A stretch of DNA of 64,000 bases from Oscillospiraceae bacterium (GCA_021199795.1 JAJQHJ010000034.1:27270-91269); one strand, 5' to 3'; numbered from the stretch's first letter, positions 31,722 to 42,975 are shown. Numbers and translations are program-made. The notes: generated from the sequence alone by a model not told the origin.

Positions 31722-32309
31722 TTACTGCGAAAGGCTTTCTGCCGGGGGCAGATTTCCAAGAGCTTTCATATACTCCATGACACCCCCAGACACCAATCTC
31801 TGCATCAGCTCGCTGATTTCTTCGGGGCTGATGTCTTTATTATTTTCATGCCAACGCTCCAGGAGTCCGAACATGGCAGAGTTGACGAATGCGATAAGGT
31901 AGTCGAAATTCTCAGAGTCCGGACGGACGGGGATGTACTTCGAAGCGAGAGGAATCAGCTCGGCTCTTACCCTCGACAGGAAGCTCGAGTCGCCATTCGG
32001 ACCCAATAGAATATAAATTTCCTCGTTCATCGCGGAAAAGACCATCCGGAAGAATTCCGTTGGTGGTTTTTCATCCGATATGGATGTCTGAGCCACTTTT
32101 TTGACGTCCTCTATCAGCTTATTCTCGACATAGGACAATAAATCGTCGGTGTCCAAAAAGTATTCATAGAATGTGCTGCGGTTATATCCGGCAAGCCTGG
32201 TGAGCTCGCTAACAGCAATCTTTGAGACCGGCTTTTCCTTTGCCAGAGCCCAAAAGGCATCGACAAACTTTTGCCTTGTTCTATCAGTGATTTCCGGTTG
32301 TTTTTTCAT
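31722..32309 (-). CDS. TetR/AcrR-family transcriptional repressor
   Basis: 195 aa. N-terminal HTH RQKFVDAFWALAKEKPVSKIAVSELTRLAGYNRSTFYEYF. Divergent from the operon at 32463. Confidence 0.85.
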   Translation of the reverse strand: MKKQPEITDRTRQKFVDAFWALAKEKPVSKIAVSELTRLAGYNRSTFYEYFLDTDDLLSYVENKLIEDVKKVAQTSISDEKPPTEFFRMVFSAMNEEIYILLGPNGDSSFLSRVRAELIPLASKYIPVRPDSENFDYLIAFVNSAMFGLLERWHENNKDISPEEISELMQRLVSGGVMEYMKALGNLPPAESLSQ

Positions 32310-32327
32310 CTAAAATCGCCTCTTTTA

Positions 32328-32420
32328 AATTATCCGACAGTTTCAAAGAAATTGGGGGTTGATAATGTCTCCGAACTGAGTATAATATATATTATACAAC
32401 AGGCTGTTGGATAAAGTCAA
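32328..32420. promoter_or_regulatory. divergent promoter/operator module, copy A
   Basis: Plus strand: half-site AATTATCCGACA (32328-32339), -35 TTGATA (32359-32364), a 16-nt spacer, -10 TATAAT (32381-32386), and palindrome TACAACA-GGC-TGTTGGA (32395-32411). Minus strand: TTGACT (rc of 32415-32420), an 18-nt spacer containing the palindrome, then TATAAT (rc of 32391-32396), facing tetR. Confidence 0.6.
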
Positions 32421-32462
32421 GACAATTCTTCCGTATTTTTTTCAGAGAGGAGGGCGAGTGTG

Positions 32463-32783
32463 ATGAGCGTTCGTATCCTGAAAGAATGGTTCAAGTGGCG
32501 TAATGACTGGGATTCCCTGTGTAATCGCTGCGGAAAGTGCTGTTACACCCGCTCTGTCGGCTCTGATGGCAAGGTTATTATTCACTATAACAACCCCTGC
32601 GAATATCTTGACACAAAGACAAACCTGTGCCGTGTATATGATGAGCGATTCAAGAAGTGCAACCACTGTGGGAAACTGACTTTATATACGGCACTGTTCA
32701 ATACCACGCTGCCGGAGGATTGCCCGTATGTGACAACTTTCCGGCTGTGGGAATGTGGTCACGACCACAACGAAAACGATTAG
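32463..32783 (+). CDS. small Cys-rich CxxCxxCC (YkgJ/UPF0153-type) putative Fe-S or Zn protein
   Basis: CNRCGKCC motif plus further Cys pairs (CEYL...CRVY...CNHCG). GGAGGG sits 9 nt upstream of ATG 32463. Confidence 0.65.
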   Translation: MSVRILKEWFKWRNDWDSLCNRCGKCCYTRSVGSDGKVIIHYNNPCEYLDTKTNLCRVYDERFKKCNHCGKLTLYTALFNTTLPEDCPYVTTFRLWECGHDHNEND

Positions 32784-32794
32784 GAGGCACAATT

Positions 32795-33487
32795 ATGGCA
32801 ACTTACGAACCAACACAGGAAGCAATGAAAAAGGCAATGTATGAAAGGCACACCGTCCGCAAGTACACGGGCGACAAGCTCCCGCAGGACATTGTTGAAA
32901 AGCTCAACGAAAGAATAGAGGAGAACAACAAAAAATATGCTCTGAACATCCAGCTTGTTACCGACAACAAGGAGGCTATGCCCGGAATCATGGCTGCAAC
33001 CATGTCTAAAAACGTCCTGAACTACATGATTCTTGCCGGTTCCGACAAGATGTCGACCGACGAAACGCTTGGATATGTCAGTGCCGACCTCATGCTTTAT
33101 GCTCAGACGTTGGGCTTAAACACCTGGTGGATAGGCGGAATGTACAGCAAGAAGAACGCAAGGAAGAATTCCAGCTCTCCCGAGGGCTCGAAGATTATAG
33201 GTGTTGTTGCCGTCGGCTACGGTATGGAGCAGGGCGTTCCGCATAAGTCGAAGCCCATGGATGAGGTTTCCTCCTATGATGGCGAAGCTCCCGATTGGTT
33301 CAAGGCTGGAGTTGAAGCAGCACTCTTAGCTCCCACAGGTATGAACCGTCAGGAATTCACCGTAAAGGGCTCCGGCAACGAGGTTACTATGACCGTTCCC
33401 GATGCATCTTTCGCAAAAGCCGACCTTGGAATCTGCAAGTACCACTTTGAACTCGGAGCGGGAAAGGAAAACTTCACCTGGAAGTAA
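32795..33487 (+). CDS. nitroreductase-family flavoprotein
   Basis: Track ORF 32657 trimmed to ATG 32795, behind TAGGAGG. ERHTVRKYTGDKLPQDIVEKL... matches the nitroreductase N-terminus. Confidence 0.75.
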   Translation: MATYEPTQEAMKKAMYERHTVRKYTGDKLPQDIVEKLNERIEENNKKYALNIQLVTDNKEAMPGIMAATMSKNVLNYMILAGSDKMSTDETLGYVSADLMLYAQTLGLNTWWIGGMYSKKNARKNSSSPEGSKIIGVVAVGYGMEQGVPHKSKPMDEVSSYDGEAPDWFKAGVEAALLAPTGMNRQEFTVKGSGNEVTMTVPDASFAKADLGICKYHFELGAGKENFTWK

Positions 33488-33598
33488 TTCAGTCATCAGT
33501 ACCTCCACAGTCATATAGATAGCGCACCGCCCACCGAAGAAGCAACGATTTGGTGGGCTGGTGCTTGTAACCACGCCTGAAGATATGGAGATGATTTT

Positions 33599-34348
33599 AT
33601 GAGATATGAGTCAAGTCAGTTGAGAGAAAACATGGACAAGAGCAGTAGGACAGTCGCGGTGACAGGTGCCGGAATTTCATATCTGTATGGTATGAGGCGG
33701 CTTAAGCAGAGTGTAGGACTGATGAATTCAAGGCAGGTTCTTTCACCCTCCTTTGTGAGAAGCAATCCGGATGAATTCTATAGAATTGTCAAAACCTCGT
33801 TTTTGGATGCGACATTCGTGAAGGGTCCAAGCAAGGTTCACAAGCAGCTAGCGACTCTTGAGAAATGTGGCTTGCTTTATGGGATAGTAACCCAGAACAT
33901 GGACTGTCTGCACACTGTAGCCGGTTCAAAGAATGTTGTCGAGTTCCAGGGAAGCTTTGGAGACAATATCTGCCTGAACTGCGGCACAAGATATACTGAT
34001 TATAAAATCTGGAATCAGGGACATGCGCCGGTCTGCGAAAAGTGCGGCTCACCCATTATGCCGACCACTTTCTGCCGGGACAACAAACTCAGCGAACAGA
34101 TTTCAAAAGAGAGCATGAAAAAAGCACAAGAAATGATTTCCGAAGCGGACTTAGTGATAATTATCGGCACAACCGGGTTCAGGAGCGACGAATATCTCAA
34201 AAAGATGCGCAAGGGAACCACGCTTGTCCAGATAAATCCGTCGGAAACTCCTCTTGACTCGGTTGCCGACTGGAATATCCGTGCAGATGCAGGAGAGGTT
34301 CTGGATGAAGTAATGAATGGATGGGAGAAGTGCGAAGATGTTCTCTAA
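33599..34348 (+). CDS. SIR2-family protein A, catalytic His replaced by Gln
   Basis: VTGAGIS, TQNMDCLHTVAGS, VVEFQGSF (Gln where the canonical motif has ELHG), and zinc ribbon CLNCG...CEKCG. Lacks GIPDFR and FGE. Confidence 0.85.
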   Translation: MRYESSQLRENMDKSSRTVAVTGAGISYLYGMRRLKQSVGLMNSRQVLSPSFVRSNPDEFYRIVKTSFLDATFVKGPSKVHKQLATLEKCGLLYGIVTQNMDCLHTVAGSKNVVEFQGSFGDNICLNCGTRYTDYKIWNQGHAPVCEKCGSPIMPTTFCRDNKLSEQISKESMKKAQEMISEADLVIIIGTTGFRSDEYLKKMRKGTTLVQINPSETPLDSVADWNIRADAGEVLDEVMNGWEKCEDVL

Positions 34349-35051
34349 ATCGGGCTTCGACGACAAGATACAGAGATTTTCAGAATATGTTGACAACAGC
34401 AACCACATAGTTGCAATCACCGGCGCAGGGATTTCTATTTCCGGCGGAGGAGTGAGCTACAGTCAGCTTTCCCGCACCATCAGACCGGGCGGCAGCTTTG
34501 AGAGCGAATCATTCCTTAAGTCCTATGTCAAAGCCATGCATCACTACAAGCCGAGCCTGAGCCATTATGCCTTGGCGGATCTGGAACGTGAGGGCAAGCT
34601 CATAGGGATTATCACGACGAACGAGGACTGTATGCACACCATTGCGGGTTCGCAAAACGTTGCCGAAATTCAGGGAAGCTTCCAGATCAACCGCTGTAAG
34701 GATTGCGGCAGGCACTATGACGGCTACGAGATATGGAACCAGGATGAGCTTCCGAAGTGCGATTCCTGCGGAGGGACAATTCTCCCGTGGGAGCTCTACA
34801 GCCACATCGGACTCTGGAACGACGGCGTCCGGGATGCACAGAAGTGGATTTCGGATGCAGACCTTATAATTGTAATCGGCACCAACGGCTACTATGGTGG
34901 TGCCTATTGGAGCTACCGGAGAAGCGATGCCGTGATTGTTCAGATAAATCCGGGTCACACAGCCTTTGACCGGGTTGCGGATCTGAATATTCGCGAAGAA
35001 TGCGACGAGGTGTTCAAAGAACTGAAAGAAAGGCGGAGTAGAAATGCCTGA
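34338..35051 (+). CDS. SIR2-family protein B (paralogue of A), catalytic His replaced by Gln
   Basis: Start moved to ATG 34338, overlapping the stop of A by 11 nt. ITGAGIS, TTNEDCMHTIAGS, VAEIQGSF, CKDCG...CDSCG. Confidence 0.85.
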   Translation: MFSKSGFDDKIQRFSEYVDNSNHIVAITGAGISISGGGVSYSQLSRTIRPGGSFESESFLKSYVKAMHHYKPSLSHYALADLEREGKLIGIITTNEDCMHTIAGSQNVAEIQGSFQINRCKDCGRHYDGYEIWNQDELPKCDSCGGTILPWELYSHIGLWNDGVRDAQKWISDADLIIVIGTNGYYGGAYWSYRRSDAVIVQINPGHTAFDRVADLNIREECDEVFKELKERRSRNA

Positions 35052-36021
35052 TGAGAAGATGCAAGAGCTTGCCGAGAAGATGCGTGAAGCCGAAAACAAG
35101 GGCTTGACTGAAGAAGAGATCAAGGCTCGCGACGAAGAAAGAGAGAAGCGCAGGCTCGAAAACATCCGTATTCTTGAGGATACACTTGATATTCTTGAAA
35201 AAGGATGCTATCAAAAGGGCAGCTCTGAAATTAGTCTCGGATTCTCAATGGATGAGATGAAAGAGGCGAGAGTTTATCTCCCGGAAGATATCAGGGCTAT
35301 CGAGAAGTCAGCACCTGTTGAAAGGTATTCTACAGACCGGGATATAAGCTGGATTTTCAGCTGCGAAAATGAGGACGCACTCGTTCTTGCAAGCAGAAGA
35401 TACATCGAAATGAAAAATGCCGGGGACTTCTCGCCGAAAGTCATGGTTCTGAACCTTGCCAGTGCCACCGAGCCGGGAGGTCACACCCGCAAAGGCGCAG
35501 GTGCACAGGAGGAAGACTTGTGTAGGAGGTCGTCTTTGCTTATGTCTCTTGAGAGCGATAACGCAAAGAAGTATTACGACTATAACAACTCATCCAAGAC
35601 ACATATGGGCTCTGATGGAATCGTCATGTCACACAACGTCGAGGTTATAAAAAACCGAAGCTGCGAAACCCTTGTGAAGCCGTTTGAGATAACCGTTATG
35701 ACCTGCTCGGCACCTATGATACGGATGGGGCTTGAGGGAATGTCGCAGGACGAGTATGAAGAAATGCTCGGAACACGTATTCGTGGAATGCTGACGGTCG
35801 CTGCAACTGAAAAATATCGCCATTTAATCTTAGGCGCATTCGGTTGCGGAGTGTATGGAAATGACGCTAAAACCGTTGCAAAGCTGTTCCATGAAGCGAT
35901 TACCGCCTTTTCCTATGCCGGAAAGCCAGCAGAAGCACTCTTTGATTCGATTGACTTCGCCGTCATGTGCAAGCCAGAAAAGGATTATAATTACAATGAA
36001 TTTTGCAAGTATTTTTCGTGA
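35044..36021 (+). CDS. bacterial-type poly/mono(ADP-ribose) glycohydrolase-like protein (DUF2263 / TIGR02452 family)
   Basis: ATG 35044 overlaps the stop of SIR2-B (ATGCCTGA). PARG-type signature LNLASATEPGGHTRKGAGAQEEDLCRRSSL (GG-X8-QEE). Charged coiled N-terminus. Confidence 0.75.
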   Translation: MPDEKMQELAEKMREAENKGLTEEEIKARDEEREKRRLENIRILEDTLDILEKGCYQKGSSEISLGFSMDEMKEARVYLPEDIRAIEKSAPVERYSTDRDISWIFSCENEDALVLASRRYIEMKNAGDFSPKVMVLNLASATEPGGHTRKGAGAQEEDLCRRSSLLMSLESDNAKKYYDYNNSSKTHMGSDGIVMSHNVEVIKNRSCETLVKPFEITVMTCSAPMIRMGLEGMSQDEYEEMLGTRIRGMLTVAATEKYRHLILGAFGCGVYGNDAKTVAKLFHEAITAFSYAGKPAEALFDSIDFAVMCKPEKDYNYNEFCKYFS

Positions 36022-36035
36022 TTAAACCGTAGCCG

Positions 36036-36122
36036 AATTATCCGACACTCCCCAAAAAATTGAGGGTTGACACCCGATTTTTGCTGAGTATAATACTAAT
36101 CATACAACAGGTTGTTGGATAA
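36036..36122. promoter_or_regulatory. promoter/operator module, copy B (duplicate of 32328-32420)
   Basis: AATTATCCGACA (36036-36047), TTGACA (36067-36072), a 16-nt spacer, TATAAT (36089-36094), and TACAACA-GGT-TGTTGGA (36103-36119). All boxes keep the same spacing as copy A. Confidence 0.6.
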
Positions 36123-36139
36123 TGACAAGGAGGAATTTT

Positions 36140-37054
36140 ATGCCGGTAATTTCTGTGGACCATTTGACAAAAGACTACGGTCATGGGCGTGGTGTGTTTG
36201 ATGTGTCTATTCAAGTTGAAAAAGGCGAATGCTACGGCTTCCTAGGACCTAACGGTGCCGGGAAGACGACTACAATAAGGCATCTGATGGGCTTTTCAAA
36301 GCCCAAAAAAGGCAAAACTTCTATTTCTGATATGGACAGCTGGGAGCACTCGGCAGAATTAAAGAACACCGTCGGCTATCTTCCCGGAGAAGTAACCCTC
36401 CCGCAGGGGCTTTCCGGAACAGGCTTCCTTAAGATGATGGAGGGTATGCGCAATACCAAAAACGACGATTACTTAAAGATGCTTCTTGACAAGTTCGATC
36501 TCGACCCGAACATCAGCATCAAGCGAATGAGCCTTGGGGTCAAGCGTAAGCTCGCGGTTGTGACAGCTTTCATGCACGACCCGGATATTCTGATTTTAGA
36601 CGAACCCACCTCCGGCTTGGATCCCGTAATGCAGGAGACGTTTATAGACTTTGTGAAAGAGGAAAAAGCCAGAGGCAAGACAATCTTTCTTTCGTCCCAC
36701 ATCTTCCACGAGGTCGATGCTTCCTGCGACAGGATCGCAATAATCCGTGACGGCAGCATCGTTTCGGAATTCAAGTCTAATGAGCTCAAGGCTAGCCATG
36801 ACAGAATATATCGTGTTTCGTTCAAGGATGAAAGCTCATACCAGCGATTTATCGAGAAGCCGCTGCGGTTCACTTCAAAGAACCATGACAAATTAAGAGC
36901 AAGAGTCCAGATTGAGGCGGAAAGAGTCGGTGAGTTGATACAGTGCTTAGGAGATTATGAAATCGCCGACTTTGTTGAGATTCCGTTCACGCTTGAGGAC
37001 TACTTCATGAGCTTCTACGACACAGGTCATCATTTCGAGGGGGTGAGCAGATGA
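36140..37054 (+). CDS. ABC transporter ATP-binding protein 1 (ABC-2 exporter type)
   Basis: Start moved to ATG 36140, behind AAGGAGG. Walker A GPNGAGKTT, signature MSLGVKRK, Walker B ILILDEPTSGLD. Confidence 0.9.
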   Translation: MPVISVDHLTKDYGHGRGVFDVSIQVEKGECYGFLGPNGAGKTTTIRHLMGFSKPKKGKTSISDMDSWEHSAELKNTVGYLPGEVTLPQGLSGTGFLKMMEGMRNTKNDDYLKMLLDKFDLDPNISIKRMSLGVKRKLAVVTAFMHDPDILILDEPTSGLDPVMQETFIDFVKEEKARGKTIFLSSHIFHEVDASCDRIAIIRDGSIVSEFKSNELKASHDRIYRVSFKDESSYQRFIEKPLRFTSKNHDKLRARVQIEAERVGELIQCLGDYEIADFVEIPFTLEDYFMSFYDTGHHFEGVSR

Positions 37055-37947
37055 GCGAATCGGTTATCTCAGTACAGCACCTGACAAAAGATTATGGGTA
37101 TAATCGTGGTCTGTTCGATATCTCCCTCGACATAAAAAAGGGCGAGGTTTTCGGATACCTAGGAACCAACGGCTCCGGCAAAACCACGACCATCCGCCAC
37201 ATGATGGGCTTTATCAAGCCTGATTCAGGCGAGGTGGACGTCAACGGCATCAACCCTTGGAAGAATGCCCCCGAGGTCATGCGAAACGTAAGCTATATTC
37301 CGGGCGAAATTGCTTTCCCGGACGTCAAGACAGGCACCGACTTCTTCAGAGTACAGGCAGAGTTCTTAGGTGTCAAGGACTTTTCATACATGAATTATCT
37401 TATCGATAAGCTCGGGCTTGATCCATCTGCAAACTTGAAGCGGATGAGCAAGGGCATGAAGCAGAAGACCGCTATAGTTGCAGCCCTCATGGGCGACAAG
37501 GAAATCCTCATTATGGATGAGCCGACAACAGGTCTCGACCCGCTGATGCGTGAGACATTTCTTGAGCTTGTCCGCGAGGAGAAGAAAAAGGGCAGAACGA
37601 TATTCATGTCCAGCCACATTTTCGAGGAAATTGAGGACGTCTGCGACCGTGTCGCAATCATCGGCAACGGCAAGATAGAAAGCGTTCTGAGCCTTTCAGA
37701 GCTGAGGCACGGCACCAAGCGAAACTACCGGATAGTTTTCGGAAATCCGCCATCAGCAAATAAATTTGCAGAGAGAATGCCTGAAGCGACTATGAACGGC
37801 AACGAGGCGAAAATAAGTCTTCTTGCAAACGAAACAGACAGAATGTTTAAAGCTCTCAGGAATCTGGAAGTGGTTTCGATTGATGAAAACCATGAGAACT
37901 TAGAGCAGTACTTCATGAATGTATATAGAGAGGAAACGAGAGAATGA
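37051..37947 (+). CDS. ABC transporter ATP-binding protein 2 (ABC-2 exporter type)
   Basis: GTNGSGKTT, MSKGMKQK, ILIMDEPTTGLD. Overlaps both neighbours by 4 nt. Confidence 0.9.
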   Translation: MSESVISVQHLTKDYGYNRGLFDISLDIKKGEVFGYLGTNGSGKTTTIRHMMGFIKPDSGEVDVNGINPWKNAPEVMRNVSYIPGEIAFPDVKTGTDFFRVQAEFLGVKDFSYMNYLIDKLGLDPSANLKRMSKGMKQKTAIVAALMGDKEILIMDEPTTGLDPLMRETFLELVREEKKKGRTIFMSSHIFEEIEDVCDRVAIIGNGKIESVLSLSELRHGTKRNYRIVFGNPPSANKFAERMPEATMNGNEAKISLLANETDRMFKALRNLEVVSIDENHENLEQYFMNVYREETRE

Positions 37948-39125
37948 AAGTAACAAAAGTATTTTCCGTACCGTTGTTCAAGCAGAGCCTCCGGGCAAAC
38001 AGGGTTCTTCTGATAGCCTGCACGGTGGTTCTGTGCCTGATGACAGTGGTCACGACCTATGCCGGAAACCTCATCGCTGGAACGGAATCGACTGATTATA
38101 CCGACGCCCAGACCGATTTCTACAGCCATCTGTACGTCCTGGCGGCATATAACGAAATGATTGGAACTGACTTAAGCTATGACGATTTCGCATCGACAGA
38201 TGACACCACCATGTATGAGACTGTGTTCGAGATGATGTCAGCTCAGTCGGATGAGCTCGACTTGTCGGTTGAGAAGTTCGCTGAGTCGGCTGATCTTCTC
38301 AAGGAATCGGACGTGGGACTGGATGTCTATATCACAAACTTCGAGTATGTCTACGCCTTGGGTGCCACCGAGGGTGTATTCACAGGCAATACCCTGGACG
38401 TAAGTACCATGATGACAAACATGTTTGAAATGATGGGAATGTCTTCTGACATGCTCAACACGATGACTGAAATGGACCCCTCGGCTATGCTCAACCAGAT
38501 GTACTTCACAATCATGTGTCTCTTACCAATTATACTATTCATCATCTTTGCCGGAAACGAACTTTTCGTCGACCAGGTCGACAAGGGCTCGATGGCTTAT
38601 GTTTTATCCACCCCGACAAAGAGAAGTGCTGTGGTCATCACTCAGCTTATATACATGATAGTCACGCCTCTCATAATGGTCGGTTGCGGGCTTATAGTAA
38701 GGCTTTTGACGACAAGAGCATTCACCGGTGAGGTGGACGTAGTGAAATACCTGGCTCTCTATGGCGGAATATATCTGCTGGCTGAGGCTATGGCAAGCAT
38801 CTGCTACCTTGCAAGCTGTGTATTCAACCTCAGCAGGAACGCACTTGGCTTGGGCGGTGGACTCAATGTATGGTTCTTCCTCTGCTCACTCTTAGGAATG
38901 TTCGGTTCCGAAACGATGGTCAGCATGGGAATTGGAGCAGAAATGCTCGGAGTCTTCAACAATCTGACTATTGTAGGGCTCTTTGATGCTGAAGCACTGG
39001 GAACCGTTGGTTCAGGTGCTGTTGATTATGCTTTCGTTCCGAAGCTTATAGCTTTGGCTGTTATAGCTGTGGTCTGCTACGCTATTGGCGCAGTCAGATT
39101 CCAGAAGAAAGATTTACCGTTATAA
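37944..39125 (+). CDS. ABC-2 family permease
   Basis: 393 aa. N-terminal TM helix, a large extracytoplasmic acidic loop, then multiple C-terminal TM helices. Translationally coupled to the ATPases. Confidence 0.7.
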   Translation: MKVTKVFSVPLFKQSLRANRVLLIACTVVLCLMTVVTTYAGNLIAGTESTDYTDAQTDFYSHLYVLAAYNEMIGTDLSYDDFASTDDTTMYETVFEMMSAQSDELDLSVEKFAESADLLKESDVGLDVYITNFEYVYALGATEGVFTGNTLDVSTMMTNMFEMMGMSSDMLNTMTEMDPSAMLNQMYFTIMCLLPIILFIIFAGNELFVDQVDKGSMAYVLSTPTKRSAVVITQLIYMIVTPLIMVGCGLIVRLLTTRAFTGEVDVVKYLALYGGIYLLAEAMASICYLASCVFNLSRNALGLGGGLNVWFFLCSLLGMFGSETMVSMGIGAEMLGVFNNLTIVGLFDAEALGTVGSGAVDYAFVPKLIALAVIAVVCYAIGAVRFQKKDLPL

Positions 39126-39166
39126 AAACATTTTGAAGCAAAAATTTTAAGGAGGAACGCCCATAT

Positions 39167-40963
39167 ATGCTTCATATTTTTGGGAATATGAAGACCAAGG
39201 ACAGGTGGCTCGCACTTCTGTGCGTGCTGCTTGTTTGCGGTCAGGTTTATTTTGACTTGCGTCTGCCCGATTACACCGCTGAAATCACGGTTTTAATCAG
39301 CAGTGAGGTGACCGAGCTGTCGCAATATTTCGTTGCCGGAGGAAAGATGCTTGCCTGTGCATTGTGCAGTGCTTTGCTGACGGTCATAGTCGGATATCTG
39401 TCTGCAATGATCGCAGCTGACTTCTCTTACGACGTAAGAGCAAAGCTCTTTGACAAGGTCACTTCTTTCGGACCCGGTGAGATAAAGAAGTTCTCGACCG
39501 CAAGTTTAATCACCCGTACCACCAACGATATAACCCAGATTCAGATGATAATCTCGATGGGACTTCAGATGCTCATCCGTGCACCCATCATGGCTGTCTG
39601 GGCGATAATCAAGATAGTCGGCAAGAGCTGGGAGCTCTCGGTTGTAGTTGCCTCGGCAGTTGTTATAGTTGTCGGTGCACTGATAGTTCTCTTGGCGATT
39701 ATGATTCCGAAATTCAGAATTGTCCAGAAGCAGATTGATGATGTCAACAGAATTACCGAAGAAAATCTTAATGGCATAAGAGTTGTCCGTGCTTTCAACG
39801 CCGAAGATTATCAGGAATCGAAATTCGACAAGGCGAATACAAACCTCATGAAAACCCAGCTGTTCACAGGCAGAGGAATGGCGGTTCTTTCGCCTATCAT
39901 GATGTTCGTGCAGAGCGGCGTCAGCGTTGCAATCTACTATGTAGGCGCGATTCTCATCAACAATATTGAGGTTCCGCTGAGTGGAACTGCCGCTGAGATA
40001 GCGACTGCAATTTCGGAGAGGTCAACAATGCTCGGCGAGGTCGTTTCGTTCAGCTCGTATGCACTCTATGTCATCATGTCGTTCGTAATGTTACTCATGA
40101 TATTCATGCTCCTTCCACGTGCACAGGTTTCCGCCCAGAGAATTAATGAGGTTCTGGATTCGGATATCGCCGTCAAAGAGGGCAACGAAACAGATTCAAC
40201 CGAAACCGGAACTATCGAATTCAAGGATGTTTCATTCCGCTATCCTGATGCCTCTGAGGATTGCCTCAAGCACATCACATTCTCGGCTAAGAAAGGCGAG
40301 ACGGTCGCATTCATAGGTGCCACCGGTTCAGGAAAATCGACACTCGGTGGGCTTGCCGCAAGGCTTTATGATGCCACTTCGGGAACGGTTCTTCTCGATG
40401 GCAAGGAAATCTCGAAATATGACTTTGAGACGCTCTATAAGAAAGTCGGATATATACCCCAGAAAGCAACTCTCTTTGCAGACACCGTTGAGGGCAACCT
40501 TAAGTTCGGCTCTACGAGAAACAACATAACCTATGAGGAAATGGAAAACGCCATGGATATCGCCCAGGCTTCCAACTTCGTCCACGCAATGGATGACGAC
40601 GTGAATAGCAGAATTGCCGCAGGCGGCTCGAATGTATCAGGCGGTCAGAAGCAGCGTCTTTCCATCGCCAGAGCAGTTGCCGGAAAGCCGGAAATTCTCA
40701 TCTTCGACGATTCATTCTCGGCTCTTGACTATAAGACCGATCGTGCACTCCGTCAGAGAATCAAGACCGACCTTAAAGACACAACCTGCCTCATCGTCGC
40801 CCAGAGAATCGGAACCATCCGCCATGCCGACAGGATTGTCGTCCTCGATGATGGCAAAATTGCAGGCATCGGCACTCATGACGAACTCATGAATAATTGT
40901 CCGGTTTATCAGCAGATAGCTTTGTCCCAGCTCTCGGAAGACGAGCTTGCGGCAAATGAATAA
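39167..40963 (+). CDS. ABC exporter half-transporter (TMD-NBD), degenerate-site subunit
   Basis: 598 aa. GATGSGKST, VSGGQKQRLSIAR. Walker B is ILIFDDSFSALD, with Asp in place of the catalytic Glu. Confidence 0.9.
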   Translation: MLHIFGNMKTKDRWLALLCVLLVCGQVYFDLRLPDYTAEITVLISSEVTELSQYFVAGGKMLACALCSALLTVIVGYLSAMIAADFSYDVRAKLFDKVTSFGPGEIKKFSTASLITRTTNDITQIQMIISMGLQMLIRAPIMAVWAIIKIVGKSWELSVVVASAVVIVVGALIVLLAIMIPKFRIVQKQIDDVNRITEENLNGIRVVRAFNAEDYQESKFDKANTNLMKTQLFTGRGMAVLSPIMMFVQSGVSVAIYYVGAILINNIEVPLSGTAAEIATAISERSTMLGEVVSFSSYALYVIMSFVMLLMIFMLLPRAQVSAQRINEVLDSDIAVKEGNETDSTETGTIEFKDVSFRYPDASEDCLKHITFSAKKGETVAFIGATGSGKSTLGGLAARLYDATSGTVLLDGKEISKYDFETLYKKVGYIPQKATLFADTVEGNLKFGSTRNNITYEEMENAMDIAQASNFVHAMDDDVNSRIAAGGSNVSGGQKQRLSIARAVAGKPEILIFDDSFSALDYKTDRALRQRIKTDLKDTTCLIVAQRIGTIRHADRIVVLDDGKIAGIGTHDELMNNCPVYQQIALSQLSEDELAANE

Positions 40964-40977
40964 GGAGGTGACTGATT

Positions 40978-42798
40978 ATGCCACAAAGTAATTCAAGACC
41001 TATGCGTGGACCCGGAGGCAGAGGTGCCCGTGACACAAGACGCGCCAAGGATACAAAAGGAGCACTTTTGGGGCTTCTCAAATACATCAGCAACAAGACG
41101 GGAATCATAGTTTTCGCACTCGTTCTTGCCACCGCAGGTGCGGTATTGACGATTATAGGACCCAACCAGATAAGCAGGCTGACGGACTATATCTATGACG
41201 GCTTGACGACTTCGATAGATATGGACGGAGTTTTAGGTGTTGCACTCCTGCTTTTGGGAATCTATCTTGCAAGTGCACTATTCAGCTTTTTGCAGCACTA
41301 TATCATGCAGACTGTCACACAGAGAACTTCAAAGAGGCTCCGTGGGGATATCAGCACGAAGATTAACAGACTTCCGCTCAAGTACTTCTCGGGAAATGCC
41401 GCAGGCGACGTTCTCTCAAGGATGACAAACGACGTCGACATGATAGGTCAGGCTATGTCCAACAGCCTTTCAAATCTTGTCACAGCAATCGCCCAGTTCA
41501 TCGGCTGCCTCATCATGATGTACTACACCAACTGGATTATGGCGACCACGACGGTTTTAGCGACTATCGTCGGACTTATCTGCATGGTTGTTGTCATGAG
41601 CCGGTCTCAGAAATACTTCACTGCAAGGCAGGAGAACCTCGGCATCCTCAACGGCTACATTGAAGAAATGTATACCGGTCACGATGTCATCAGAATCCTG
41701 AACGCCGAGGGCGAGGTCAAGGACACGTTCACTTCGATGAACAAGGCTGTCAAGAACGCCAACTTCCGCTCGCAGTTCCTCTCCGGACTCATGCAGCCCA
41801 TCATGACGTTCATCGGCAACTTCAGCTATGTCGCTGTATGCGTTGTCGGTGCGGCTCAGATTATCAACGGCAACATCACTTTTGGCGTTATCACCGCTTT
41901 CCTCATCTACACAAGGCTCTTTGAGTCTCCTCTCCGCCAGATTTCTCAGGCTATGACTCAGGTTCAGTCCTGCGCCGCGGCTTCGGAAAGAGTATTTGAA
42001 TTCCTGGCAGAGGACGAAATGGAGGACGAATCCTCGAAGACTGAGAAGATTGAGAACGTCAGGGGCGAAGTCGAGTTTAAGAATGTTAAGTTCGCTTACC
42101 CGAATGCTCCCGAAAAGGAGATTATCCATGATTTCAGTGTGAAAGTCGAGCCAGGGCAAAAGGTTGCAATCGTCGGACCCACGGGTGCCGGCAAGACGAC
42201 TATGGTCAACCTGCTGATGCGCTTCTTCGAGCCCACCGGCGGCGAGATTCTAATAGATGGAGTTCCGACTCAGAATGTCCCGAGATCCAACGTCCACAGC
42301 CAGTTCGGAATGGTTTTGCAGGACACATGGCTGTTTGAGGGAACCGTAAGAGAGAACCTTCTCTACAACACCGAGGGCGCGTCTGATGAGCAGATGAAAG
42401 CGGCTTGCAAGGCTTGCGGAATCCACAGCTTTATCAAGGCACTTCCGAACGGCTACGATTCAGTTCTAAGTGATAACACGGCGATTTCCGCCGGTCAGAA
42501 GCAGCTTCTGACTATCGCCAGGGCAATGATCCAGAACAGCCCTATGCTCATCCTGGATGAAGCGACTTCGAGCGTTGACACCAAGACGGAAATGATCACC
42601 CAGGAAACGATGGATAAGCTGACCGACAAGAGAACGAGCTTCGTCATCGCCCACCGTCTGTCTACTATCAAGAATGCCGACATAATCCTCGTCATGCGTG
42701 ACGGCGACATTGTCGAGCAAGGAACGCACGAGGAGCTTCTTAAGCAAGGCGGCTTTTATGCCGAGCTGTATAACAGCCAGTTTGAAGAGGTGGCATGA
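40978..42798 (+). CDS. ABC exporter half-transporter (TMD-NBD), consensus-site subunit
   Basis: 606 aa. GPTGAGKTT, Walker B MLILDEATSSVD, non-canonical signature ISAGQKQLLTIAR. This asymmetry is that of heterodimeric exporters of the BmrCD/LmrCD/TM287-288 type. Confidence 0.9.
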   Translation: MPQSNSRPMRGPGGRGARDTRRAKDTKGALLGLLKYISNKTGIIVFALVLATAGAVLTIIGPNQISRLTDYIYDGLTTSIDMDGVLGVALLLLGIYLASALFSFLQHYIMQTVTQRTSKRLRGDISTKINRLPLKYFSGNAAGDVLSRMTNDVDMIGQAMSNSLSNLVTAIAQFIGCLIMMYYTNWIMATTTVLATIVGLICMVVVMSRSQKYFTARQENLGILNGYIEEMYTGHDVIRILNAEGEVKDTFTSMNKAVKNANFRSQFLSGLMQPIMTFIGNFSYVAVCVVGAAQIINGNITFGVITAFLIYTRLFESPLRQISQAMTQVQSCAAASERVFEFLAEDEMEDESSKTEKIENVRGEVEFKNVKFAYPNAPEKEIIHDFSVKVEPGQKVAIVGPTGAGKTTMVNLLMRFFEPTGGEILIDGVPTQNVPRSNVHSQFGMVLQDTWLFEGTVRENLLYNTEGASDEQMKAACKACGIHSFIKALPNGYDSVLSDNTAISAGQKQLLTIARAMIQNSPMLILDEATSSVDTKTEMITQETMDKLTDKRTSFVIAHRLSTIKNADIILVMRDGDIVEQGTHEELLKQGGFYAELYNSQFEEVA

Positions 42799-42888: not shown

Positions 42889-42975
42889 TGGTGCAGGTAA
42901 CAGGACTTGAACCTGCATGAAATTGCTCTCACATGGACCTGAACCATGCGCGTCTGCCAATTCCGCCATACCTGC
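42889..42975 (-). tRNA. tRNA-Leu (anticodon CAG), CCA encoded
   Basis: The rc reads GCAGGTA-TG-GCGGAATTGGCAGACGC-G-CATGG-TTCAGGT-CCATG-long variable arm-GCAGG-TTCAAGT-CCTGT-TACCTGC-A-CCA. 87 nt, class II cloverleaf. Confidence 0.93.

Follow-up and report, generated by a model that had tools for sequence, protein, structure and literature searches.

Two copies of a bidirectional promoter-operator module appear to place a sirtuin/PARG operon and a set of ABC exporter genes under one TetR-family regulator in a 64,000-nucleotide stretch of DNA from an Oscillospiraceae bacterium (GCA_021199795.1, JAJQHJ010000034.1:27270-91269; the whole stretch is called the window here, and positions are counted from its first nucleotide). 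Module A stands between tetR and a divergent operon for a CxxCxxCC protein (CxxC), a nitroreductase, two SIR2 paralogues and PARG, and module B stands between PARG and the exporter genes. A probability of about 0.78 is given to the reading that A and B are duplicated TetR-controlled units, through which a single TetR would co-repress both operons as well as its own gene. We infer repression by a single TetR from the position of the operators, their conservation, and the presence of a lone TetR gene of this kind in the genome.

Architecture of the Two Modules

Gapless alignment, repeat search and a promoter scan delimit module A, the bidirectional promoter-operator region in the interval between tetR and the CxxC operon, at 32328-32422, and module B at 36036-36130, where it begins 14 bp past the PARG stop codon and extends into the ribosome-binding site (RBS) of the exporter. 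The two are collinear at an offset of 3708 bp, from AATTATCCGACA through GTTGGATAA.G.CAAG. The repeat search gave the same offset for two blocks, 32376-32421 against 36084-36129 (46 nt, 85%) and 32328-32362 against 36036-36070 (35 nt, 83%). An earlier sequence-only reading had claimed two modules at this distance with the same box layout and spacing, and the gapless alignment of about 95 bp and the repeat blocks bear it out. Some gene starts needed small corrections: the first exporter gene begins at the ATG at 36140, not at 36122, the CxxC gene at ATG 32463 and the nitroreductase gene at ATG 32795.

No further convincing copy was found in the genome. Exact matches to AATTATCCGACA occur at 32328 and 36036 only, and plus-strand matches to the 21-nt box ATACAACAGGYTGTTGGATAA (ATACAACAGGyTGTTGGATAA) at 32394 and 36102 only, with none in 100 shuffles. 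When the 2.16-Mb genome was searched for the palindrome with up to two mismatches, sites A and B were found plus one two-mismatch match. This candidate third operator (contig C34) lies in the 3' end of a response-regulator gene without promoter context, and it was judged a chance match.

The proposed unit would consist, in order, of an ATCC(G/A)ACA half-site, a -35 element (GGTTGAT/C), a -10 element (TATAAT) and a palindrome, TA(T/C)ACAACA-N3-TGTTGGATA, at the transcription start; it would close with TTGAC(A), read on the opposite strand as the -35 of the regulator's own promoter. In a consensus scan of 12 kb the top three promoter-like sites were P_B (TTGACA-16-TATAAT, plus strand, 36067-36094, 12/12), the predicted driver of the ABC exporter genes; P_A (TTGATA-16-TATAAT, plus strand, 32359-32386, 11/12), the predicted driver of CxxC-nitroreductase-SIR2-SIR2-PARG; and P_tetR (TTGACT-18-TATAAT, minus strand, 32391-32420, read 32420-32391, 11/12), which is divergent from P_A and overlaps it. 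The -10 boxes of P_A (32381-32386) and P_tetR (32391-32396) are 4 bp apart, so that the promoters overlap divergently and a single protein on the palindrome would block both. Operator A (ATACAACAGGCTGTTGGATAA, 32394-32414) occupies the predicted +1 to +21 of P_A and fills the P_tetR spacer; the earlier reading had placed the palindrome within the spacer of a minus-strand TTGACT-18-TATAAT promoter, and the scan agrees. Operator B (ATACAACAGGTTGTTGGATAA, 36102-36122) is followed directly by the RBS AAGGAGG and the ATG at 36140. Both palindromes thus overlap target promoters: each sits at the predicted +1 of P_A or P_B, and the one in module A also lies between the boxes of P_tetR. An operator at +1 to +21 of two near-consensus promoters and within the P_tetR spacer fits a classical repressor. 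The putative auxiliary half-site box, TTATCCGACA, lies on the plus strand at 32330-32339 in module A, about 62 bp 5' of the palindrome, and at 36038-36047 in module B, as an exact match that is kept in species of the same genus.

In operation, a TetR dimer on palindrome A would occlude P_A and the overlapping divergent P_tetR, the latter amounting to autoregulation, and a second dimer on module B would occlude P_B and so silence the ABC-2 exporter and two fused ABC exporters. A small-molecule ligand, probably a substrate of the exporter or the reductase, would release TetR and lead to joint induction. No terminator-like site was seen between PARG and module B, and read-through from P_A should therefore reach the exporter as well.

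Module B carries a promoter-like site on its minus strand as well (36099-36128, TTGTCA-18-TATGAT, 10/12), pointing back into PARG. Every B copy has TTGTC or TTGTT as its minus-strand -35, a change from the TTGAC that tetR-facing modules carry. The site in copy B looks like a decaying relic, from which antisense transcription would be possible. Its TATGAT -10 was considered as a further sign of decay and rejected, since several functional tetR-facing modules also have TATGAT; the change specific to B is in the -35 only (TTGAC to TTGT), with one exception, L083.

The Regulator

The tetR gene (31722-32309, minus strand) encodes a TetR-family regulator of 195 aa. In Pfam it passes the cut-off of 26 bits for TetR_C_8 with a score of 42 and falls slightly short of that for TetR_N, with 21 bits against 24. 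An AlphaFold2 model (predicted local distance difference test score, pLDDT, 85) has nine helices, and the Foldseek PDB matches listed for it are nearly all named TetR-family regulators or known members such as FasR, MtrR, EthR and FadR, the best with TM-scores of about 0.6-0.7. PDB matches by sequence are likewise TetR regulators (best E 2e-5). Profiles, PDB matches and model agree on a helix-turn-helix N-terminus followed by an all-helical ligand domain, the TetR fold. A protein search of the organism's own genome found one member of this TetR subfamily.

The tetR gene is divergent from and adjacent to its presumed targets, 153 bp from the start of the CxxC operon, and the divergent layout recurs in about 45 homologous loci. 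The recognition helix of the helix-turn-helix (NR.TFYEYF.D; N43, R44, T46, F47, Y48, E49, Y50, F51 and D53) is invariant family-wide, whereas the ligand domain diverges. An invariant recognition helix matching a conserved operator gives indirect support to the predicted operator binding. To our knowledge this TetR/operator subfamily of Clostridia has no characterised member.

Conservation Among Distant Relatives

Searched with the TetR protein, species-representative genomes yielded 58 loci. In about 45 of these, all from Clostridia and with TetR identities of 34-66%, one copy of the module lies between tetR and the genes opposite. Among the hosts are a cultured Lachnospiraceae strain (LCP25S3_G4, locus L083) and Clostridium oceanicum JCM 1407 (locus L090). 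The elements conserved in a set of 42 modules are ATCCGACA, ATTGatGGTTGAT, TACAACA-nn-TTGTTGGA and cAaG. The palindrome arms hold and the centre and spacers vary in about 42 modules whose TetRs go down to 34% identity. TATAAT, exact or in a few loci with one mismatch, is found 11-14 bp 5' of the palindrome, and the P_tetR -35 in most relatives is TTGACA. In 41 modules the box core ATCC(G/A)ACA hardly varies. It lies at variable distances from tetR, but 61-64 bp from the palindrome in nearly all, the exceptions being L050 and L052 (178 bp), where tandem palindromes confound the measure. This spacing holds despite about 55 bp inserted between box and tetR, which argues that the box belongs to the promoter-operator and not to the tetR leader.

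The genes under the module vary. In 24 loci (21 genomes and three possum metagenome contigs) tetR is directly divergent from ABC_A1-A2-permease, as the earlier reading had proposed looking for, with a single module copy; this direct pairing of regulator and exporter is the commonest and most widespread state. Two loci of the direct type, L057 and L100, run on into two fused ABC genes, which is the layout of the window minus its inserted genes. Elsewhere tetR faces a fused ABC pair (L050, L052, L060, L062), CxxC and a fused ABC gene (L069, L082, L099), CxxC-nitroreductase-ABC-2 (L049, G014), or CxxC-nitroreductase-flavodoxin-SIR2a-SIR2b-PARG-AMP ligase-GNAT with no ABC-2 genes adjacent (L053, L055). 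That a handful of genes recur with the regulator in shuffled order argues that they work jointly.

A few side observations belong with these loci. In L050 and L052 (5775-5990, minus strand) two palindromes are 115 bp apart, the second with weaker promoter-like boxes and a GTCAAGGAGG-ATG end, so the module seems to have been partly duplicated in tandem independently. In L055 (49-1984, minus strand) PARG is followed by an AMP-binding enzyme of the acyl/aryl-CoA ligase type and a GNAT acetyltransferase, both candidates for further partners of the sirtuin/PARG set. To judge by a record named Ruminococcus sp. Zagget11 and by contigs labelled Common Brushtail, the sequences would seem to come largely from Clostridia of the marsupial gut; a link to a plant-toxin diet is speculation.

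The Locus Within the Genus

The locus was compared with that of 10 other species of the window's genus (Oscillospiraceae or Ruminococcus metagenome-assembled genomes). Gene order and both modules are the same in nine of the 10, and module A is orthologous in all. Module B is found in each of the nine congeners with SIR2-SIR2-PARG and is missing from both loci without these genes (G014 and L049). The sequence-only reading had named relatives that carry the cassette with a single module as a finding that would weaken its model; all nine have two. The boxes are conserved among congeners and the spacers variable, a phylogenetic footprint.

Each copy has its own signature. A copies show a TTGATA -35, the CxxC leader after GTCAAG, and no RBS; B copies show a TTGACA -35 (TTGATA in the basal G063) and a palindrome followed immediately by AAGGAGG-N8-ATG. 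Mean module identity is 84% among A copies, 75% among B copies, and 66% for A against B between different genomes. Since these signatures hold across species, the duplication is older than the species. The gap between PARG and module B is 14 bp in all of them. In G063, the earliest-branching species, copy B is most A-like (78% identity, TTGATA -35, TATAAT-type flank).

G014 lacks SIR2a-SIR2b-PARG and module B, and only about 20 nt separate its nitroreductase stop codon from the RBS of the exporter. Compared with the window, both G014 and L049 are missing the same stretch, 33488-36117 (2.6 kb), which comprises a hairpin, SIR2a, SIR2b, PARG, and promoter B as far as the right palindrome arm; the junction filler of 13-20 nt in these two shows no convincing alignment to the palindrome. 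Phylogenies built from the exporter genes, from CxxC with the nitroreductase, and from the first fused exporter (ABCf1) agree in placing L049 outside the genus clade, G063 at its base and G014 nested within. In the exporter tree, support is 100/99 for the 11 congeners and 94/99 for the ten without G063; for these ten it is 100/99 in the tree of CxxC plus nitroreductase. Nested as it is among cassette-bearing species, G014 would represent loss or recombination and not a surviving ancestor.

Smaller differences were also seen. An identical C-to-T change in the left arm (CAATAGG) is present in both operators of G001 (L020) and in copy A only of its sister G061 (L036); gene conversion between the copies, or parallel drift, could account for it. 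An additional classical nitroreductase (PF00881, 176 aa) lies between the CxxC and TM1586-type genes in L018 (2670-3200), G032, G022, G001, G004, G061 and G062, and is missing from the window, G014, G028 and apparently G063, so that the accessory part of the operon is plastic. In G062 (L037; G062:C27, 8780-16580) an apparent tandem duplication takes in the exporter and two B modules. These modules are 188 bp apart with an N gap between them, and beyond the first B palindrome the sequence turns into the module A leader. The tandem copy measures 3777 bp, reaches from ABC_A1 to codon 219 of ABCf1, and is 100% identical. The duplication was set aside as a likely assembly artefact of the A/B repeat.

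Origin of the Second Module

These comparisons support A and B as probable copies of one ancient bidirectional promoter-operator unit of the Clostridia TetR subfamily. The layout of operator B and the right end of module B (TTGGATAATGnCAAGGAGG-N8-ATG) are those of the direct tetR-exporter loci, and the left end of module A is the tetR side; together they would amount to a duplicated ancestral intergenic region. On this basis the ancestral state would have been tetR divergent from the ABC-2 exporter across one module. In the window's genus, accessory genes would then have been placed between regulator and exporter and the module duplicated, leaving the exporter with a TetR-controlled promoter of its own.

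Insertion by promoter duplication had been proposed from the sequence alone. Its outline stands, given the direct single-module relatives and the pairing of module B with SIR2/PARG, but the separable indel is 2.6 kb and not the 3.7 kb of the proposed cassette. CxxC and the nitroreductase would form a layer separate from that indel. Two histories are possible: all the genes were inserted at the outset, and recombination or loss later removed or replaced the 2.6-kb part, or CxxC-nitroreductase came first (the L049 state) and the block of SIR2/PARG and promoter B second, with G014 re-acquiring the older allele.

A different route to the same arrangement is the fusion of two operons. Module B would then be the relic of a second tetR-ABC-2 locus, joined downstream of a locus in which tetR faces CxxC-reductase-SIR2-SIR2-PARG, with the second tetR lost; nothing would have been inserted between tetR and exporter and no promoter duplicated in place, and present regulation would be the same. 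Both unit types do stand alone elsewhere (L053/L055 and the 24 direct loci), and module B still has its minus-strand promoter-like site, whose TATGAT is shared with several functional tetR-facing modules. Mobility of the locus also speaks for joining. Only the 11-kb block from tetR to the second fused exporter (ABCf2; 31768-42794) is shared with congeners, and its flanks differ in almost every genome (L016-L022, L036-L038), so the block would seem to move or recombine as a unit. Fusion is nevertheless unlikely, because no tetR remnant lies in the 14-bp gap that separates PARG from module B in all species; the A-like copy B of G063 fits duplication within the lineage, and G014 and L049 have CxxC-nitroreductase joined straight to the exporter without a second module.

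In the window the 11-kb block is flanked on the left by the rplQ terminator and on the right by a terminator and tRNA-Leu(CAG) (42889-42975). No mobility gene was seen within it. Integration beside the tRNA gene was considered and rejected, as the flanking repeat CACATACAC(G/A)CA agrees at only 11/12 nt (about 31631 and 42816), with about 0.1 such pairs expected by chance.

Repressor, Activator or Neither

Several points weigh against repression by one duplicated TetR-controlled unit as set out above. The upstream box is a half-site only, with no inverted partner; its binding by TetR is conjecture, and activators typically bind at about -62. The closest named NCBIfam model for the regulator is DhaS, a TetR-type activator, at 36 bits. 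The arms of operator A carry one to three substitutions in G014, G028 and G004 and a 1-bp deletion in G001, where control at operator A may be loosening. As for the order of events, G014 and L049 share their indel boundaries though G014 nests among cassette-bearing species.

For the box, three roles are conceivable: an auxiliary contact, a roadblock within the tetR leader, and a site bound by another protein. TetR acting as a DhaS-like activator or dual regulator through it, or a different protein bound there with the palindrome alone as the TetR site, is improbable. The best NCBIfam and Pfam C-terminal matches do fall in the DhaS/TetR_C_8 group, and the box is near-invariant, with an almost constant spacing of about six helical turns to the palindrome. 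But the DhaS cut-off is 129 bits, well above the score obtained; P_A and P_B, already 11-12/12 consensus, should need no activator, and the full palindrome covers +1 or the -10/-35 spacer, the position of a repressor. A different protein is argued against by the box itself, which equals the palindrome arm at 8/9 positions and is the exact arm (ATCCAACA) in G004, L083 and L088, pointing to the same protein.

Very improbable is a non-regulatory role of the repeats, as ends of a mobile cassette or as structured 5'-leader RNA: direct repeats do bracket a gene block that has moved between genomic contexts, and both mRNAs would carry the palindrome at their 5' ends, but the element is single-copy in about 45 tetR-cargo intergenic regions, and the genome holds two copies only, unlike the many dispersed copies expected of a miniature inverted-repeat transposable element. 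A leader RNA element was rejected: the leaders have no Rfam match at E up to 1, and their folds are no more stable than those of shuffled sequences (z +0.8 and -0.1). The palindrome arms show conservation but no compensatory changes, and their loop varies freely.

Comparison With Known Systems

In Tn10, the TetR repressor gene is divergent from an export gene, tetA, for a major facilitator superfamily (MFS) pump, with overlapping promoters and two tandem operators. The duplicated TetR-controlled unit resembles it in its divergent repressor and exporter genes, its overlapping back-to-back promoters and its shared palindromic operator, and an inducer related to the exporter substrate would be expected here too. 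It differs in having a single full palindrome with a lone half-site about 62 bp away in place of two tandem full operators, in serving an ABC-2 exporter and not an MFS pump, and in a second complete promoter-operator for the downstream operon. The two TetR proteins share no sequence relationship beyond the fold.

MtrR, QacR, AcrR and EthR repress drug-efflux genes from promoter-overlapping operators, one regulator acting at several promoters. The fold is the same (TM-score about 0.6-0.7), the predicted operator overlaps the promoter, and more than one promoter would answer to one regulator, as read here from sequence. Unlike these proteins, with which identity is only 12-24%, the regulator has an operator and a conserved -62 half-site specific to its Clostridia subfamily. 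With a palindrome of only 21 bp, nothing points to a QacR-type dimer of dimers.

For the genes under control, the nearest parallel is the SirTM-macrodomain operons of Staphylococcus and Streptococcus, reportedly described by Rack et al. in 2015 as stress-linked and as placing a sirtuin-type enzyme beside an ADP-ribose-removing hydrolase. Here too a sirtuin-type gene adjoins such a hydrolase gene. This locus differs from the SirTM operons in its pair of SIR2 paralogues and in a hydrolase of PARG type (TIGR02452) where those have a MacroD-type domain; GcvH-L and LplA2 genes are absent, and TetR control with ABC exporters and a nitroreductase is present. A literature search found nothing on this operator or on a link between TIGR02452 and sirtuins.

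Significance

In its regulatory logic the locus is an ordinary TetR system, and a tidy example of one. The analysis supplies a predicted operator for an uncharacterised TetR subfamily (the palindrome with the ATCC(G/A)ACA box about 62 bp 5' of it) and a two-promoter regulon. It also offers a clean natural case in which a promoter-operator was probably duplicated as genes entered the space between a repressor and its exporter, and in which the copies have been pared to the parts needed: A has lost the exporter RBS, and B has an altered tetR-facing -35. The reshuffled neighbourhood under one operator is the best available evidence for sirtuin/PARG and exporters taking part in one response.

A broader and more doubtful suggestion is that the TetR/operator unit is a horizontally mobile xenobiotic-response regulon of Clostridia, here mostly from marsupial-gut samples, in which drug-type ABC exporters are interchangeably joined with a YcgN-like protein, nitroreductases or flavodoxin, and the set of two sirtuins and PARG. 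If this were true, a cycle of NAD-dependent ADP-ribosylation and de-ADP-ribosylation would be part of a detoxification or antibiotic-tolerance response, perhaps modifying a toxic small molecule or its protein target in a step coupled to efflux, and the -62 half-site would be a second contact, loop-forming or roadblock.

Genes of the Two Operons

Genes were assigned by Pfam and NCBIfam profile searches, and all those of the two operons are on the plus strand. The first operon begins with a YcgN-like CxxCxxCC cysteine-cluster protein (32463-32783; a weak Pfam CxxCxxCC match, and NCBIfam YcgN at E 1e-17, below the cut-off). It continues with a TM1586-type nitroreductase (32795-33487; PF14512, E 9e-63; start set from RBS and ATG), SIR2 paralogues a (33599-34348; PF02146, E 2e-23) and b (34317-35051; PF02146, E 8e-19), and a microbial-type PARG of the TIGR02452 family (35044-36021; PF10021, E 3e-26; TIGR02452, 160 bits against a cut-off of 50). 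The ABC-2 exporter consists of two DrrA-like ATPases with ABC_tran domains (36140-37054 and 37051-37947) and a permease (37944-39125; ABC2_membrane_2). Two fused permease-ATPase exporters follow (39167-40963 and 40978-42798; both ABC_membrane plus ABC_tran), and in the second of these homology to relatives stops at about 42794.

The 111-nt spacer between the nitroreductase and SIR2a (33488-33598) contains a stem-loop on the plus strand (33519-33568) at the left edge of the 2.6-kb indel. The spacer folds at -37 kcal/mol (z -3.5). The stem-loop is absent from G014 and L049 and is kept in at least eight cassette-bearing species, where a compensatory change from G-C to A-T and a G-U intermediate are seen. 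It may be an attenuator or a processing site; by conjecture, attenuation of transcription from P_A could explain why the second promoter has been kept.

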